Notes: generated by a model not told the origin, from the sequence alone. Counted from the stretch's first letter, positions 909 through 7,709 are shown. The stretch is 64,000 nucleotides of DNA from Anaerolineae bacterium (GCA_034435375.1 DAOTXR010000073.1:231480-295479), one strand, 5' to 3'. Translations and numbers: made by a program.

Positions 909-1081
909 GGTCTCCTCAAAATCTACCTGCCAGTGCATCATGTGTCGGCTGCTGAGGAAGTCTGCGTGTAAGTGTAGCCGAACGGCAGACGACATACAAG
1001 GTGAGAAACGCGCTGAGTCTAGAACCGCGATCTGTGGTATAGTGCTTGATCATGGGGGATCCGAATGATCTGGAGGCATCC

Positions 1082-1936
1082 ATGACGGAGTACACCATTG
1101 ATGGCCAGCGCATCCACGTCCACGAAGAAGGTGAGCCAGGCCAGCAGATCGCTCTGCTGATCCATGGATGGTCAAGCTCATGGTACGCTGTGTCGCCGTT
1201 GCTGCCCCTGCTGCGCCAACGCTATCACTGTCTGGCTGTTGATCTGCCAGGCTATGGCGAGTCTCCGCCGCTGGCCGAGCGCGCCACGATTCCTGGCTAT
1301 GTGACCCTGCTCATCCGGCTGATCGAGCAGGTGACGGACAAACCTCTAGTGCTGGTGGGTCACTCAATGGGCGGGATGATCAGCCTGACGCTCACCCTTC
1401 AGCGGAGCGACCTGGTAGAGCGGCTGGTGTTGCTGTGCCCGACCATCAGCGGGCTGCTGTCAACCCGCATCAACCTGACACTGACGCCCTTTGTGCTGAT
1501 GGAGCGCTTTGCCCTGACCAACTGGTTGATCAGCGCGCTTGAGCCGCTGGTGCCGGTCACTGACGGCCTGTTGCGCCCTGCATTGTTCGCTGACCGGACT
1601 GGCATCCGCGAGGAGGACTACCAGCGCATCCGGTCCGATGCACGCCGCCCTGGCCAGGGCCGGGTGCGAGCTGAGTGCTTCCGCGCCATGCGCGACAACG
1701 ACCTGCGCGGCAAGCTGAGCGCCATCACTGCGCCTGCGCTGGTGATCTGGGGCATGGAGGATAACACTGTGCCACTGCGCGATGCCAGCGTGGTAGCGCG
1801 TGAGATGCCAGAGGCCGACCTGCGCATCATCCCCAATGCAGGCCACTGGCCCCAGTTTGAAACACCGGAGCTGACCAAGCGCTACGTGCGGGCCTTTCTG
1901 AGCACACCGATTAAGCTGCTCAATCTGGAATTCTAG
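1082..1936 (+). CDS. Alpha/beta-fold hydrolase
   Basis: HGWSSS oxyanion motif, DLPGYG, nucleophile elbow GHSMGG, WGMED acid and AGHW His. GGAGG RBS before ATG 1082. Confidence 0.9.
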   Translation: MTEYTIDGQRIHVHEEGEPGQQIALLIHGWSSSWYAVSPLLPLLRQRYHCLAVDLPGYGESPPLAERATIPGYVTLLIRLIEQVTDKPLVLVGHSMGGMISLTLTLQRSDLVERLVLLCPTISGLLSTRINLTLTPFVLMERFALTNWLISALEPLVPVTDGLLRPALFADRTGIREEDYQRIRSDARRPGQGRVRAECFRAMRDNDLRGKLSAITAPALVIWGMEDNTVPLRDASVVAREMPEADLRIIPNAGHWPQFETPELTKRYVRAFLSTPIKLLNLEF

Positions 1937-1945
1937 GGGGCCACC

Positions 1946-2707
1946 ATGGGTGACCTCTACGAGGAGCTCAAGCGGAAGTTTGGCGACCGAGAATCGGCTG
2001 ACACGCTGAGCACGGTTGACATGATGAGCCTTCCAACGCCAGTCCGGCGGGTGATTCGCATCCTGCTGCGCAAAAACGAGATGACCTACTCCGACCTACG
2101 GCGGACCCTCGACCAGCTCCCAGCGGAGCAGCGGATCAGGCAGGAGGAAATGGACGAGGCGCTTGATGCGCTGTGCAAACTGGGTTGGATCAGACAGATG
2201 GAGAGCGCAACCAACGTCACCTACTGCATCAGCCTGGGGCGGCGGTGGAGCGCGTTCGCACCACAGGCAACTAGCCCGGCGCGTCGAGAACGGCCCACAG
2301 GCCCCCTGTTGGACAAACTGATCGCATCGGAGCCTGAGACTCCACACCCACAAGCCACAAAACCTGAGGGGACTCGATCAGAAGCTCCACAGGCAGCCAT
2401 CATTCCACCGGAAGCGCCCACCACAGAGGTTTCAAAGCCTATGGAGACTAGGCCAGAGCCAGCCCAAGTCAGCCAGACCAACGCCTGCAAACTCCAGGAC
2501 ACACAATCACAGCAAACCAAGCCGGAGACCGCGCCAGCGAAGGTTGCCGAGCCACAGGTTGCCCAACTCAAGACCCCACCGGATCAGCAAGAAGCCCTCA
2601 GCGAGCAGAGCCAGGAAGCCAGGCGTCGCGGGGCCTTCCGAACTTGGGCAGAACGCCTGCTTCGACGAGGAGCAAAGGATACGATGCAGGGGCAGACAGA
2701 GGAATAG
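1946..2707 (+). CDS. Hypothetical protein with N-terminal winged-helix-like region and Pro/Ala/Gln-rich low-complexity C-terminus
   Basis: LLRKNEMTYSDL...EALDALCKLGWIRQ resembles a wHTH; starts 9 nt after the hydrolase stop. Confidence 0.55.
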   Translation: MGDLYEELKRKFGDRESADTLSTVDMMSLPTPVRRVIRILLRKNEMTYSDLRRTLDQLPAEQRIRQEEMDEALDALCKLGWIRQMESATNVTYCISLGRRWSAFAPQATSPARRERPTGPLLDKLIASEPETPHPQATKPEGTRSEAPQAAIIPPEAPTTEVSKPMETRPEPAQVSQTNACKLQDTQSQQTKPETAPAKVAEPQVAQLKTPPDQQEALSEQSQEARRRGAFRTWAERLLRRGAKDTMQGQTEE

Positions 2708-2776: not shown

Positions 2777-4315
2777 CTATCGCCCCTGTTCCAGCGCGTA
2801 AATTTCCAGGCGTGTCGACTTGCCCTTGAGCGGAATCCGGCCCAGCGAACGGCAGCCAAAGCGATCGCAAACCTGGCCGTATACTGCCTCGGTCATCAGG
2901 ATGCGGTTGCCAAGCGCCTTACCCATCAGTCGCGCAGCGGTATTGACCGCATCCCCCAGGACATTGAACTCGCGCCGGCCACGCGGCTCGCCGATCTCAG
3001 CGGCGAACACAGGCCCCTGCGATATGCCAATCTGGCAGGCCAGGCTGATCTCACGGCCACCAATAGCAGGAGCCTCAGCCTTCAGCACAATGTCACGGAT
3101 GGCGAGAGCCGCTTCTACCGCACGAAGGGGGTCATCGGTGTGGGCCGTTGGCACACCAAACAGAATGATCATGTCCGAGCCGACCAGGTGGTAGGTGACC
3201 TTCTTCAGCACGCCGCCGCGCGCCTCGACCGCGGCGTTGACCAGCGCAAAGGTCCGGGAGAAGCTGCGCACCACCGTTCCGACCTCCTCCGGGGTGGCCG
3301 CATCCACCGATTCGGGCAAGCCGATCAGATTGACCGCCAGGATGGTCGGCTGAGGAAAATCAGGCGGGATCTCGCGGCGGGCTGCCGTCTCGACCAGCAG
3401 GTTCAGCACAGGGGCCGGGATGAAAGCCGCTAACGGCTCCACCCGGCCAAGCATCTCCCCAATGGAACTGATCAATCCCTCGATGCTGCGGTCGAACAGC
3501 ACAGCGGTTGCCAGGCGGCTGCGGATGACGCCGATATCAAAGGTGCCTAGCTCCTGGTCGCTCAGATCGTCGATGACGTACACAAACCCTGGCTGGCCCG
3601 ACTCAAAGCGAAAGAGGTCCTTTACCTGCTGATAGGCGGCGTGAGTCAGGCACACGCGGCCCACCTGCCCCGCACTCTCGGCGCGTTTGGCCTCATGCAC
3701 ATCCCTGCCAAGCAGGACGTGCTCCATGCGATGCGGCGTGCCGATGTCAGCGGTCAGAAAGCGCCCGGCGTGGATGCCAACCCGCATGCCCAGCGAGTAA
3801 GTGCCGTCGTCGGTCTGGAGGACGGCATAGCGGCCCATGGCGCGCTGCATACGCAGCCCGGCGCGGACAGCCTGGGCCGTCTCGTCGCCGCGCTGGTTGG
3901 CTGGGAACTGCACCAGCATCGCATCGCCGGTGAACTCCAGCAGCTCTCCGCCGGACTTGCTGATGATCTCCAACATCTCGGCAAAGTAAGCATTCAGCAC
4001 ATCCAACAGGCTGCGTGCGCCCTGGGTTCCATGAGCCGCATTGGCTTCCATCAGAGGAGTAAATCCAGAGAGATCGGTAAACATCAGCGCGCCCTGCTCC
4101 CAGCCCAGCCGCACCTGACCCGGCGCAGCAGGGGAACTGGCGAGCTGGCGGGGGAGGTAGTTGTGCAGAACGTGCAGCAGCGTGCGCAGATGCTCGAAGA
4201 CGCGCTCCAGGTTCTCGGACGACTGATCGAGCCAGGCGGTGGCATACAGATCGGCGGGGAGCAGCGGGCGCAGCCTCGGCTCCAGGGGAGCAAGCGGCGC
4301 TTGCGTGTACGGCAT
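2777..4315 (-). CDS. Class III nucleotidyl (probably adenylate) cyclase with two tandem cyclase domains
   Basis: Domain 1: FTDLSGFT, EFTGDA, RVGIHAG. Domain 2: LKKVTYHLVGSD, QIGISQGPV, FNVLGDAVNTAARL, IPLKGK. Confidence 0.9.
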   Translation of the reverse strand: MPYTQAPLAPLEPRLRPLLPADLYATAWLDQSSENLERVFEHLRTLLHVLHNYLPRQLASSPAAPGQVRLGWEQGALMFTDLSGFTPLMEANAAHGTQGARSLLDVLNAYFAEMLEIISKSGGELLEFTGDAMLVQFPANQRGDETAQAVRAGLRMQRAMGRYAVLQTDDGTYSLGMRVGIHAGRFLTADIGTPHRMEHVLLGRDVHEAKRAESAGQVGRVCLTHAAYQQVKDLFRFESGQPGFVYVIDDLSDQELGTFDIGVIRSRLATAVLFDRSIEGLISSIGEMLGRVEPLAAFIPAPVLNLLVETAARREIPPDFPQPTILAVNLIGLPESVDAATPEEVGTVVRSFSRTFALVNAAVEARGGVLKKVTYHLVGSDMIILFGVPTAHTDDPLRAVEAALAIRDIVLKAEAPAIGGREISLACQIGISQGPVFAAEIGEPRGRREFNVLGDAVNTAARLMGKALGNRILMTEAVYGQVCDRFGCRSLGRIPLKGKSTRLEIYALEQGR

Positions 4316-4441
4316 AGGACCTACCTTATCGAACGGCTGCGTTGCAGAGGCATAACTGCATTATACTTGAAGGGCATTTGCCGCCACAACCGACATCACC
4401 TACAATGCCGTATGATGCCTTGATGGGCTTCACACGGAGTA

Positions 4442-5788
4442 TTGAGTATGCCCAACTTCCTGAGTCGACTCCTGCGCGTGTATCCGGGCGAAGAACGCAT
4501 TGTCCTGGTGCTCGGCTTCCTGCTGATGGGCAACGCACTGGCTTTGGAGCTTTCCGACGTTGTGGCTGTAAGCGGCTTCCTCGATCAGGTCGATGCGTCG
4601 CTCATTCTTGTGGTTTGGATCGTCGACATGGTCGTCATCCTGTTCACAGCCGGGCTGCAATCTCTGATCGTCGACCGCTTTGAGCGCGTACAGTTGGTGC
4701 GCGGAATGGCGCTTGTGGCTGCACTGGCTTACGCTTTCCTGCGGTTGTTGTTCATGATCCCAGGCCTAGACTGGCTGAACTACTCGCTGCTGTATGTCTT
4801 GAGCGACCAGCAGTGGCTCTTCGTGCCGCTGGTGATCTGGGTTTTGGCCAACGACATGTGCGACATGGCCCAGGCCAAGCGTCTCTTTCCGCTGATCGCT
4901 ATCGGCAACTTCGTCGGCCAGGTCTTAGGGTTGGGCATTGCCGCCATCTCGCCAGCCATTTTGGGGCAATGGGGTATTCGGACAGTCGAAGTGCTGTTCC
5001 TGAACGCGACGCTGGGCGTGGTGATGTATCTGATCGCCTTGCGGGGCCTGCGCGACGTTCGGGTGCGGAAAACGGCAGGCAACTCTGCCTCGCCGCGCGA
5101 GACGCTGAGCGAGGGCATGGGCTTCATCCGCGAGGTGCCGTCTTTCCGCTACATGACGATAGCCATGCTGGCGCTGGCCATGGCGGTGGCCGTGATCGAG
5201 TTCCGCTTTCTGGTCGTGTCGGATCGGGAACTGGCCAACGCCGATGTCTTTCAGACCTTCTACAGCCTGTACCGGCTGGGAGTAACGGTAATTGCGATCC
5301 TGATCCAGTCGTTTGTCACCAGCCGGTTGATTGAGAAGTTGACGCTCAAAAATATCTTCTTGATCCTGCCGATCACAGCCCTCGTGTGTCTGGCCGGCAT
5401 GATAGTCTCACCAGGGCTAGCCATCAGCACCGCCGGGATCGTGCTGGCGCGGCTGGCGCAGGAGACCATCGACGAGTCGGCACGCAAGGCATTCCAGGCG
5501 TTGGTGCCAGAGGAACGCCGGGGCCGAGTGAGCGTGTTCATGGAAAGTTATCTGTTGGCAGTGGGGACCATTGTGGGCTGCCTCATCGCTGGGGTGATGC
5601 TCTTGATAGGCGGGCGGCTGGTGGGCGCGGCGCACTTTTACTTCTACCTGGGCGCAGCGTTAGCAGCGACACTGGGCGCCCTCTGGGCCATCTTACAGAT
5701 GCGACGGGTGTACGACAGCAGCCTGCTGAACTGGCGGCTCAAACGTCGCCAGCGCGGGGCAAGCGTGCTCGACAAGCTGGAATTCTGA
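4442..5788 (+). CDS. MFS transporter, NTT/TLC (nucleotide translocase-like) family
   Basis: About 12 hydrophobic segments; family-like motif WVLANDMCDMAQAKRLFPLIAIG and later ARLAQETIDESARKAFQALVPEERRGR. Confidence 0.75.
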   Translation: MSMPNFLSRLLRVYPGEERIVLVLGFLLMGNALALELSDVVAVSGFLDQVDASLILVVWIVDMVVILFTAGLQSLIVDRFERVQLVRGMALVAALAYAFLRLLFMIPGLDWLNYSLLYVLSDQQWLFVPLVIWVLANDMCDMAQAKRLFPLIAIGNFVGQVLGLGIAAISPAILGQWGIRTVEVLFLNATLGVVMYLIALRGLRDVRVRKTAGNSASPRETLSEGMGFIREVPSFRYMTIAMLALAMAVAVIEFRFLVVSDRELANADVFQTFYSLYRLGVTVIAILIQSFVTSRLIEKLTLKNIFLILPITALVCLAGMIVSPGLAISTAGIVLARLAQETIDESARKAFQALVPEERRGRVSVFMESYLLAVGTIVGCLIAGVMLLIGGRLVGAAHFYFYLGAALAATLGALWAILQMRRVYDSSLLNWRLKRRQRGASVLDKLEF

Positions 5789-6809: not shown

Positions 6810-7709
6810 TCACGGCGCTCGGTGGGCCAGCGCGAGCGCGGCCAATCGATCAGCAACGTCGCGCACGATGTCGTCAGGCACGCCATCAGCGGTCCGCGAT
6901 TGCAGACGCAGGTCGATCTGGTCGTTGACATAATCGACCACCACAAACAGCCCCTCAGCGGTCAGGGCAATCTCGGTGGAAAACAGCTCCAAACGGCATA
7001 CACGGGCAATAGAAGCCGTCTCGCGGCGCAGCGGCGCAAGGCCGAAACGCTCCTCCTCATCCGGCGTGAGAGGAGTGTAGCGGTGAGTAGTTGTGTCCCA
7101 CCAACAGGGATAGATCTGCCCCAGGCAGTAGATCACACGAAACCAGGCTGGTCGCTCCCCTAACCTGGTGGGGACGACATGCGCCTGAAGCAGGTATTGA
7201 TCTGTCGGGTGTTCCTGTCGGGCAGCACACACCTGGCTTGGAGAGGTTGCCTCGGTGACCACGCCCTCCCCACCGCCGCCATGGGCAGGCTTGATGGTGA
7301 AGGACATCCCCAGGGGGGAAAGGTCAGGTAGCGACAGCGTTGGATGCATCTGGTAAGGCGGCAGGACAATGGTGTAAGGCGTCTGCAGACCCGCTTCAAT
7401 GAGGGCCAGATGCATGGCCGCCTTGTCCCAGGTCCACAGCGCCCGCTCACGCGCATTGATACAGTACACAGCACGCGCCGTAGCCCAGCAGACAAGCGAC
7501 ACAAAGCGCGCATCGTTGTCTGAGGCACGGTCAAACAGCACGCGAAACTTGAGGCGGGTATCGGCCAGGGCTTCCAACACTGCATCGAGGGTGTGGGGCG
7601 TGACCTGCAGCAGAGAAAGCCCATATGCCCGGCAAGCTGCCTCAAGCAGCGCTGCAAAATCGGCGTCGTATTCCCAGTTCCAGGCCAGACACAAGTCATA
7701 CCGGCTCAT
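6810..7709 (-). CDS. ATP-grasp-fold protein of unknown function
   Basis: DKAAMH...TPYT, TIKPAHGGGGEGV, YLLQAHV, FSTEIA, VVDYVND follow the ATP-grasp layout. Confidence 0.65.
   Translation of the reverse strand: MSRYDLCLAWNWEYDADFAALLEAACRAYGLSLLQVTPHTLDAVLEALADTRLKFRVLFDRASDNDARFVSLVCWATARAVYCINARERALWTWDKAAMHLALIEAGLQTPYTIVLPPYQMHPTLSLPDLSPLGMSFTIKPAHGGGGEGVVTEATSPSQVCAARQEHPTDQYLLQAHVVPTRLGERPAWFRVIYCLGQIYPCWWDTTTHRYTPLTPDEEERFGLAPLRRETASIARVCRLELFSTEIALTAEGLFVVVDYVNDQIDLRLQSRTADGVPDDIVRDVADRLAALALAHRAP

Follow-up and report, generated by a model that had tools for sequence, protein, structure and literature searches.

Soluble adenylyl cyclase (sAC) serves both as a drug target and as a model of how bicarbonate and pH are sensed, and discussion of its bacterial roots usually goes by way of single-domain cyanobacterial enzymes. 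For NTT-like carriers in free-living bacteria, no function is known to us. A full-length sAC-like enzyme, with a C1-C2 core, a STAND ATPase, and a TPR region, is attributed to Chloroflexus in the passage of PMC11006738 that cites Kobayashi et al. 2004. For the carriers, Major, Embley & Williams (2017, PMC5381601) described a clade of NTT-HEAT-cNBD fusions (cNBD, cyclic-nucleotide-binding domain) plus an unfused offshoot that includes Chloroflexi, proposed control of the carrier by cyclic AMP (cAMP), and described uptake roles for NTTs. Here we analyzed a 64,000-nucleotide stretch of an Anaerolineae bacterium genome (GCA_034435375.1, DAOTXR010000073.1:231480-295479), hereafter the window, in which a tandem class III cyclase gene and the gene for an unfused carrier of the TLC/NTT family lie divergently side by side. 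Both genes are probably accessory parts of a cluster built around a MinD/ParA-like ATPase in Chloroflexota and cyanobacteria, with the cyclase supplying cAMP and the carrier acting as a regulated output. New here are the assignment of the cyclase to the sAC type and the change in its regulatory pocket, the position of the carrier next to the NTT-HEAT-cNBD fusions, and counts that tie the two genes to each other and to ParA-positive genomes.

Domain calls on the window proteins are based on Pfam and NCBIfam scans. In the cyclase, PF00211 matches in two stretches (E = 3e-31, 108.8 bits against a cut-off of 21.9), and neither scan found a sensory, transmembrane, or TPR domain in its 512 residues. 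The AlphaFold2 model, built on 56 homologs, has a predicted local distance difference test score (pLDDT) of 91.7 and a predicted template modeling (TM) score of 0.91. Its chain is wholly taken up by three N-terminal helices, C1, a partly flexible linker, and C2, so the description of this protein as free of such domains in an earlier sequence-only reading is upheld. The N-terminal segment is modeled as helical at a pLDDT of about 95 and holds positions that are invariant in 56 sequences (E12, L15, R16, L19, P20, Y24, W28, and H42-R44). By phmmer against the PDB, residues 54-230 align with sAC 20-196 and residues 324-465 with sAC 293-419 (4clf, 4oya). Ranks 1-24 of a Foldseek search of the PDB with the model are all human sAC, over about 490 columns at TM scores of 0.73/0.80, and the soluble domains of AC9 come next. 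Since sAC leads both searches, the proper comparator is ADCY10, in its truncated isoform of ~50 kDa. The earlier likening to mammalian C1/C2 adenylyl cyclases therefore stands for the division of labor, with one competent site and one degenerate pocket, but not for the G-protein-regulated membrane enzymes. By sequence and predicted fold, the protein is best read as a soluble, single-chain, pseudo-heterodimeric class III cyclase and the bacterial counterpart of the truncated sAC core (sACt).

Cyclase residues were mapped to human sAC through a HMMER alignment, conservation was counted in a 120-sequence family alignment, and the roles of sAC residues were taken from PMC12867704 (residue table) and PMC12250328. 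C1 keeps both metal-binding aspartates, as had been claimed: D81 (FTD) and D131 (GDA) are invariant in 120/120 homologs. R178, at the position of the pyrophosphate-contacting sAC K144, is invariant in the 56-sequence alignment. C1 was also said to lack the Asn/Arg pair, which is right for the Asn position (H207; variable in the family, mostly Gln) but not for the Arg position, where R211 is present in this protein, though the family varies there between Leu, Gln, Arg, and His. For C2, the reported loss of the first metal Asp (N329, 96%) and retention of the Lys and the Asn/Arg motif are borne out, but the second Asp, which went unmentioned, is also lost (S380, 100%), so that both are missing as in sAC. 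The base contact in C2 is K372, which aligns with sAC K334 and is 88% conserved (the adjacent K371 is 98% conserved). N451 at the adenine-contacting position of sAC T405 is invariant in the 120 homologs, as are the transition-state residues N458 and R462 (sAC N412 and R416; 120/120). Since C1 provides the metal aspartates and C2 the Lys, Asn451, and Asn458/Arg462, a single competent active site is predicted. We consider cAMP the most probable product because a Lys occupies the base-specifying position; the second adenine-specifying position holds the invariant Asn451 rather than Asp or Thr.

The mirror pocket is degenerate and is lined by the highly conserved E127, K210, N329, and S380. Two of these replace the bicarbonate ligands of sAC, with Glu127 in place of Lys95 and Lys210 in place of Arg176, each in 120/120 family members. 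The C2 loop insertion that shapes the sAC bicarbonate site has the same length in the window cyclase, because the alignment to sAC needs no gap there. Natural sACs without K95 or R176 are not bicarbonate-sensitive (PMC12867704), and in inactive sAC Arg176 pairs with Asp99 (PMC12250328). As both ligands are replaced and sACs lacking either are insensitive, we infer that this family is regulated otherwise than by the bicarbonate mechanism of mammalian sAC. The degenerate pocket may still be a regulatory site that works unlike the mammalian one. Lys210 may switch between Asp131 and Glu127, and such a switch would make pH or an ion a more plausible signal than bicarbonate.

The carrier scores 23.5 bits against TLC (PF03219; cut-off 21), with MFS_1 under its own cut-off in Pfam, and its orthologs reach 41.3, 45.1, and 31.6 bits for PF03219. 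TIGR00769 gives only 23.9 against a cut-off of 387, so the protein is not the canonical equivalog. The Pfam scan and the AlphaFold2 model revealed no HEAT or cyclic nucleoside monophosphate (cNMP)-binding domain in the carrier; the model (pLDDT 86) shows two times six helices in a bundle, followed by a short helical cytoplasmic tail. Searched alone against the PDB with phmmer, the carrier has no match. A family profile built from 18 orthologs reached, at E ≤ 1, only Arabidopsis NTT1 (1.8e-9) and C. pneumoniae NTT1, and its match to NTT1 includes a conserved FW..AN...AK+.YP stretch. In Foldseek, the top two hits of the carrier model are NTT1 structures (9j3n and 9j3m), with SPNS2 and MdfA close behind. 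The first description of the carrier as NTT/TLC-like, without a HEAT or cNMP-binding tail, is thus confirmed, and profile and Foldseek favor NTT1 rather than the clustering with sugar or drug MFS families that had been named as its refutation.

Relatives of the carrier differ in length and fusion. All of the longer ones found (24/24) are TLC-HEAT fusions and 22/24 also carry a PF00027 cNMP-binding domain. Relatives of similar length number at least 783, measure about 445-455 residues, and often bear the label ATP:ADP antiporter in JGI. One metagenomic protein, P0158 (588 residues), is 57% identical to the carrier over its full length and then continues into a cNMP-binding domain, with no HEAT. 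This domain lies past an LDKLDF sequence, which is the tail motif shared with the carrier. We read the carrier as an unfused NTT/TLC family member from a branch whose fused members carry HEAT and cNMP-binding domains, and the joining of a cNMP-binding domain to the carrier in these relatives points to regulation, not cargo.

Co-occurrence was counted in 301 Chloroflexota genomes (labeled G), among which related and hence non-independent genomes are included; results are given as counts, without a probability. The cyclase is present in 20 of these genomes, the carrier in 21, and both in 18. The match holds within genera, with both genes in G103 and neither in G085, and both in G166 and neither in G218. 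Immediate adjacency occurs in this sample only in the genome studied here; the genes are 6-7 kb apart in G112 and G103. Gene order was compared in a locus panel (labeled L) made up of the best 80 of 374 cyclase relatives found by scanning species genomes. Among these 80 loci, L018, L033, L066, L034, L030, and L028 resemble the window in having an upstream carrier gene on the strand opposite to the cyclase. The divergent spacers span 180-195 bp in the first three, the open reading frame (ORF) calls overlap in L034, and the gap is 477 bp in L030 and 1124 bp, with room for a gene, in L028. Counted by species, the divergent pairing recurs in 5 besides the present one, and two further species have an upstream carrier over a larger gap. 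About 17/80 loci have a carrier no more than 10 kb from the cyclase, in several gene orders, and proximity in different orders argues against mere inherited synteny. An unfused carrier ortholog is also present in the cyanobacterial FACHB-471. The expectation of conserved pairing is therefore borne out in part: the divergent adjacency recurs and 18 genomes share both genes, but adjacency is a minority state and each gene also occurs alone. We infer from these patterns that the two genes are functionally linked, though not as producer and exporter.

The most constant member of the surrounding cluster is a MinD/ParA-like ATPase with the Walker A sequence FRGGTGKS, found in 42/80 loci, including six labeled cyanobacterial and the cyanobacteria-like L050. 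It is encoded in 36/301 genomes, which include every cyclase-positive and every carrier-positive one, and its gene directly precedes the carrier gene in G015, G131, G199, and G126. Across families, cyclase and carrier are both present in f1, f2, f3, f11, and f35 and both missing from the ParA-positive f9, f19, f21, f22, and f36, while f47 has the carrier alone. The carrier operon takes two forms, either carrier, GNAT-like, and HAMP-tail or carrier, HAMP-tail, ATP-grasp, and ParA. Other cluster members are a PrsW-type membrane protease, followed by or fused to a cNMP-binding protein, and a PD40 propeller protein, and in 24 of the 80 loci a small protein with no Pfam match is convergent with the cyclase 3' end. 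In L018, the closest genome locus with a carrier (cyclase 68% identical), an intact operon of carrier, HAMP-tail, ATP-grasp, ParA, and ParA is divergent from the cyclase. The G031 locus has a long form of the cyclase in the same cluster position, in the order ParA, small protein, cyclase, then PrsW-cNMP. Of the cyanobacterial loci in L055-L097, only some (L073, L074, L085, and L090) keep a ParA-like gene by the cyclase. The other conserved cyanobacterial neighbors (prepilin peptidase, AccD, two PsbV-like cytochromes, cytochrome c, and a TPR protein) were set aside as lineage synteny rather than a functional link.

Two C-terminal elements recur among the cluster proteins. The HAMP, HAMP-GAF, and cNMP-binding proteins share a helical tail of ~60 residues (…IEIDE…EIT.TDFF..L..KA…R). 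A related short motif (…RR..G.S.LDKLEF; …GIW..LD.KL), consisting of a basic patch and then a hydrophobic-W/L-x-x-L-D/E pattern, ends the carrier, the small proteins, a 110-residue protein by ParA (p110), and some PrsW proteins. A regular expression for this motif, picked post hoc after the data had been seen, matched 11/16 carriers, 16/27 small proteins, 6/7 p110, and 4/14 PrsW proteins within their final 30 residues, versus 3% of other ORFs.

PrsW-type proteases are site-1 proteases of anti-sigma factors. In two loci (L099 9456-13006 in G031 and L012 2890-5772 in G139), an extracytoplasmic function (ECF) sigma factor gene and a gene for a small protein with a C-terminal transmembrane segment stand directly upstream of the PrsW-cNMP fusion, by the cyclase. 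This small protein is a possible anti-sigma factor. By analogy, the ECF sigma/PrsW-cNMP arrangement could amount to cAMP-gated regulated proteolysis.

In the genome studied here the cluster is divided. Its HAMP-tail, PGM1-like ATP-grasp, and ParA genes are found 10-13 kb upstream of the window on the minus strand (G000:C73:218518-221841); the best PDB match of this ATP-grasp is 3wvq (2e-7). When the six-frame translation was searched with a hidden Markov model of the shared tail, one further bearer was found, a GAF protein on contig C48. The two tail bearers of this genome are thus the HAMP membrane protein (L017 8772-9827, minus strand) and the GAF protein (L098 5602-6516, plus strand). The GAF-tail gene adjoins a LiaF-like gene and one for a 1358-residue STAND-HEAT protein. 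Ordinary cNMP-binding domains occur elsewhere in the genome. The window looks like the remnant of an L018-type arrangement, in which the carrier was left beside the cyclase when the cluster was split.

As we picture it, the cyclase would supply cAMP as one input to the ParA-ATPase cluster, to be read by cNMP-binding or GAF sensors or, in some relatives, by the cNMP-binding domain fused to the carrier. The HAMP, GAF, and cNMP-binding sensors, which have no kinase, would dock on the ParA-like ATPase through their shared C-terminal tail, and client proteins such as the carrier, the small proteins, and the PrsW protease would dock through the short C-terminal motif. The carrier would be the regulated output, and its cargo may be a nucleotide or else a compound used or made by the ATP-grasp or GNAT-like, amide-forming enzyme of its operon. 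We advance only tentatively the further step that this is an uncharacterized signaling system of filamentous bacteria, with a ParA hub, tail-docked sensors, and motif-docked effectors (the carrier, a PrsW protease beside an ECF sigma/anti-sigma pair, and small winged-helix-like proteins), in which cAMP controls transport. If such a hub system is real, cAMP would control transport, and possibly regulated proteolysis, without a CRP-type transcription factor.

Other accounts of the pair can be given. The sequence-only reading proposed that the cyclase makes a cyclic nucleotide that the carrier exports, or that the carrier imports the nucleotide substrate, possibly for cell-cell signaling. The divergent spacer shared here and in several other species agrees with this, as do the strong co-occurrence of the two genes and the carrier's origin in a nucleotide-transporting family, yet of these only the adjacency specifically favors export, the pair is adjacent in a minority of genomes, and either gene can be present where the other is absent. 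Steadier partners of the carrier are the ParA-like ATPase, the HAMP-tail sensor, and the ATP-grasp or GNAT-like enzyme, and a cyclic nucleotide fits the cNMP-binding domain of the fused relatives better as a regulator of the carrier than as its cargo. To our knowledge, characterized NTTs are importers or exchangers, and none exports a cNMP. We therefore regard export, and cell-cell signaling with it, as improbable. It is similarly doubtful that adjacency has no function here and that independent genes are merely kept together by synteny in one lineage. The distance of about 1 Mb between cyclase and carrier in the complete genomes G258, G223, and G043 would suit that explanation. So would the divergent spacers of the window, L018, L033, and L066, in which inspection by eye found no common motif, and the many cyanobacterial cyclase genes with housekeeping neighbors only. 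It accounts poorly for proximity in at least four gene orders (including divergent, ParA-carrier downstream, and carrier-GNAT-HAMP upstream), for a phyletic match that holds down to the genus with both genes confined to ParA-positive genomes, and for the independent cNMP link through the carrier fusions.

A different objection concerns the product. The protein might make cyclic GMP or a pyrimidine cNMP, or be a non-catalytic nucleotide-binding regulator, as suggested by the invariant Asn451 where adenylyl cyclases have Asp or Thr and by the existence of a tandem cyclase-like, ATP-binding non-enzyme (PDB 6yii, Foldseek rank 36). We give this little credence, since 56-120 homologs keep the metal aspartates, the pyrophosphate-contacting R178, the Lys, and the Asn/Arg pair without change, as expected of an active enzyme, and the base-specifying residue is the Lys typical of adenylyl cyclases, where guanylyl cyclases have Glu. 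The Lys/Asn pair (N451 for sAC Thr405) is nonetheless unusual, and the product is not certain. This is one of several observations that weigh against our placement of the cyclase and carrier in the ParA cluster. The wide separation of cyclase and carrier in most complete genomes, including the 1-Mb cases just mentioned, is another, and the two genes are not always together: G019, G002, Microcoleus GLPB, and Tychonema BBK16 have the cyclase without the carrier, and G154, G199, and G131 the reverse. The co-occurrence counts were drawn from related genomes, the tail-motif pattern was chosen with the data in view, and the cNMP-fused P0158 is known from a single 2.6-kb metagenome contig. A genome-wide search of the present genome found no tail-bearing cNMP-binding protein and no PrsW-cNMP fusion, so the proposed role of cAMP reader would here fall to the GAF-tail protein or to an ordinary cNMP-binding protein. 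Even so, membership in the ParA cluster remains the reading that we think probable.

More than 1000 proteins match the cyclase at E ≤ 1e-10, and the best 120 matches are 478-600 residues long, 60-74% identical, and named only as generic cyclase-domain proteins. Among the 301 Chloroflexota genomes, 17 have an ortholog at 52-61% identity and 3 have a long form at 36-38% identity with open frames of 1055-1315 residues. The best 80 of the 374 relatives come from Anaerolineae-like Chloroflexota, Chloroflexaceae, and filamentous cyanobacteria (Microcoleus, Tychonema, Kamptonema, and Leptolyngbyaceae), and family members from filamentous Chloroflexota and a nested cyanobacterial clade are 52-74% identical. 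A quick maximum-likelihood tree with approximate likelihood-ratio test (aLRT) support puts the cyanobacterial cyclases in one clade (aLRT 96). The midpoint root, which separates two long forms from the rest, nests them among Chloroflexota, though branches are long and the root is unsure. Because the clade is single and nested, the tree suggests one transfer of the cyclase between the phyla. The cyclase of L050, a contig labeled Actinomycetota MAG69, falls inside the cyanobacterial clade, and its neighbors match Microcoleus-type synteny (prepilin peptidase, AccD, and PsbV-like cytochromes); this contig is probably misbinned. In the genome studied here, cyclase and carrier are single-copy, save for distant single-domain cyclase paralogs.

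Table 1 Features of the window around the cyclase and carrier genes, in window coordinates
Feature	Coordinates	Strand	Basis
Stand-alone tandem class III cyclase, 512 residues	2777..4315	-	Uninterrupted ORF; PF00211 twice
Cyclase N-terminal helical segment, residues 1-60, ahead of C1	4136..4315	-	Invariant positions, modeled helices
Cyclase C1, residues about 76-238	3602..4090	-	sAC alignment, family counts
Cyclase C2, residues about 319-509	2789..3361	-	sAC alignment, family counts
Divergent intergenic region, cyclase/carrier, 126-132 bp	4316..4447	.	Sequence
Unfused TLC/NTT-family carrier, 446 residues from ATG 4448 (448 residues from TTG 4442)	4448..5788	+	TLC score, profile, Foldseek
Carrier C-terminal tail motif RRQRGASVLDKLEF	5744..5785	+	Kept in orthologs as LD[KG][LI][ED]F
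Gene convergent with cyclase 3' end	1946..2707	+	Distant, longer homolog of small no-Pfam protein
Alpha/beta hydrolase ending LLNLEF	1046..1936	+	Pfam Abhydrolase

The gene anatomy given by the sequence-only reading is correct, with the cyclase ORF at 2777-4315 on the minus strand and the carrier ORF at 4442-5788 on the plus strand (Table 1). The carrier ORF opens at TTG 4442, but ATG 4448 is the likelier start, because it has GGAG 8 nucleotides upstream and the protein database holds the 446-residue form. Depending on the start, the divergent spacer is 126-132 bp, close to the roughly 125 bp first claimed. Ahead of the carrier, the spacer contains one candidate sigma-70-like site at 4378-4406 on the plus strand.

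On the other side of the cyclase, the protein encoded at 1946-2707 shares 25-32% identity over about 100 residues with L010 3331-3804, L011 12189-12545, and others, which hold the same convergent position at the cyclase 3' end. Neither this protein nor the small convergent protein has a Pfam or NCBIfam match, and an Atlas search returned Chloroflexota hypotheticals only. The hydrolase at 1046-1936 is 60% identical to one in the carrier operon of G223 (L016 9421-10275, ending LLKAQF), where the hydrolase is followed by a small-protein homolog, and the window keeps that order. No such hydrolase was found in the other 80 loci, and it is possibly associated with the cluster. The gene at 6810-7709 was considered as the cluster's ATP-grasp and rejected, as it gives a weak RimK-family hint (E = 4e-4) and is unrelated to the PGM1-like ATP-grasp.

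As a stand-alone bacterial C1-C2 core under tight conservation, the cyclase can serve as a simple model, with an apparently intact active site and an allosteric pocket rebuilt around an invariant Glu and Lys in place of Lys and Arg. The family should be useful for asking how the degenerate site of a pseudo-heterodimeric cyclase evolved and what it senses. A carrier family tied to a cyclase, to cNMP-binding fusions, and to a ParA-type cluster would likewise make cAMP control of carriers experimentally approachable.

Of the described systems, the closest to the window cyclase is human ADCY10 sACt (PDB 4clf, 4oya, 5iv4), its best PDB match by both sequence and fold, yet only about 20% identical. 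Both are single C1-linker-C2 chains of about 50 kDa with no membrane anchor. The metal aspartates are in C1 only (D47/D99 in sACt, D81/D131 here) and the Lys, Asn, and Arg in C2 only (K334/N412/R416 and K372/N458/R462). Both have Asn where C2 would carry the first Asp, and their C2 loop insertions are equally long. The differences are the exchange of Lys95, Arg176, and Thr405 for Glu127 and Lys210, both invariant, and Asn451; the conserved 60-residue N-terminal helical segment; and an origin in a gene of its own, not a splice form. Full-length sAC adds a C-terminal STAND NTPase and TPR region, and the 512-residue cyclase has neither. Bacterial full-length sAC-like cyclases come from the same phylum and share its tandem core. 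Its identity to the long Chloroflexota forms of G031, G015, and G002 is 36-38%. Two of these were scanned (1050 and 1293 residues as called), and both have an additional AAA_16 and one a TPR as well, the architecture of full-length sAC. Unlike these, the window cyclase lacks AAA_16 and TPR and belongs to a separate, much tighter clade (52-74% identity).

The nearest longer relatives of the carrier are the NTT-HEAT(-cNBD) fusions (PMC5381601), which share its TLC/NTT domain at only 24-31% identity and carry the HEAT or cNBD that it lacks. The reverted unfused clade of that study is set beside our carrier by description only. The carrier further departs from that description in its short C-terminal motif, in its operon partners (ParA, HAMP-tail, and ATP-grasp or GNAT-like), and in its cyclase neighbor. 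Plastid and chlamydial NTT1 (PDB 9j3j-9j3o) are the only PDB sequences reached by the carrier profile, and give a best Foldseek TM score of 0.73. Identity to NTT1 is 13-14%, the match covers the central third only, the carrier falls short of it by about 50 residues, and the scores of other MFS folds are almost as high.

The constant member of the cluster is a P-loop ATPase of the MinD/ParA type, like those of MinD-MinE, ParA-ParB, PomZ-PomXY, and McdA-McdB. The short basic-plus-amphipathic terminal motif of the cluster proteins recalls what we take to be a similar feature, the ATPase-interacting peptides of these systems, and serves as a lead only. Unlike the ATPases of those systems, the cluster protein has Arg in place of the signature Lys of Walker A (FRGGTGKS). 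Its partners are sensors, a carrier, and a protease, whereas those of the MinD/ParA systems are DNA or division proteins.

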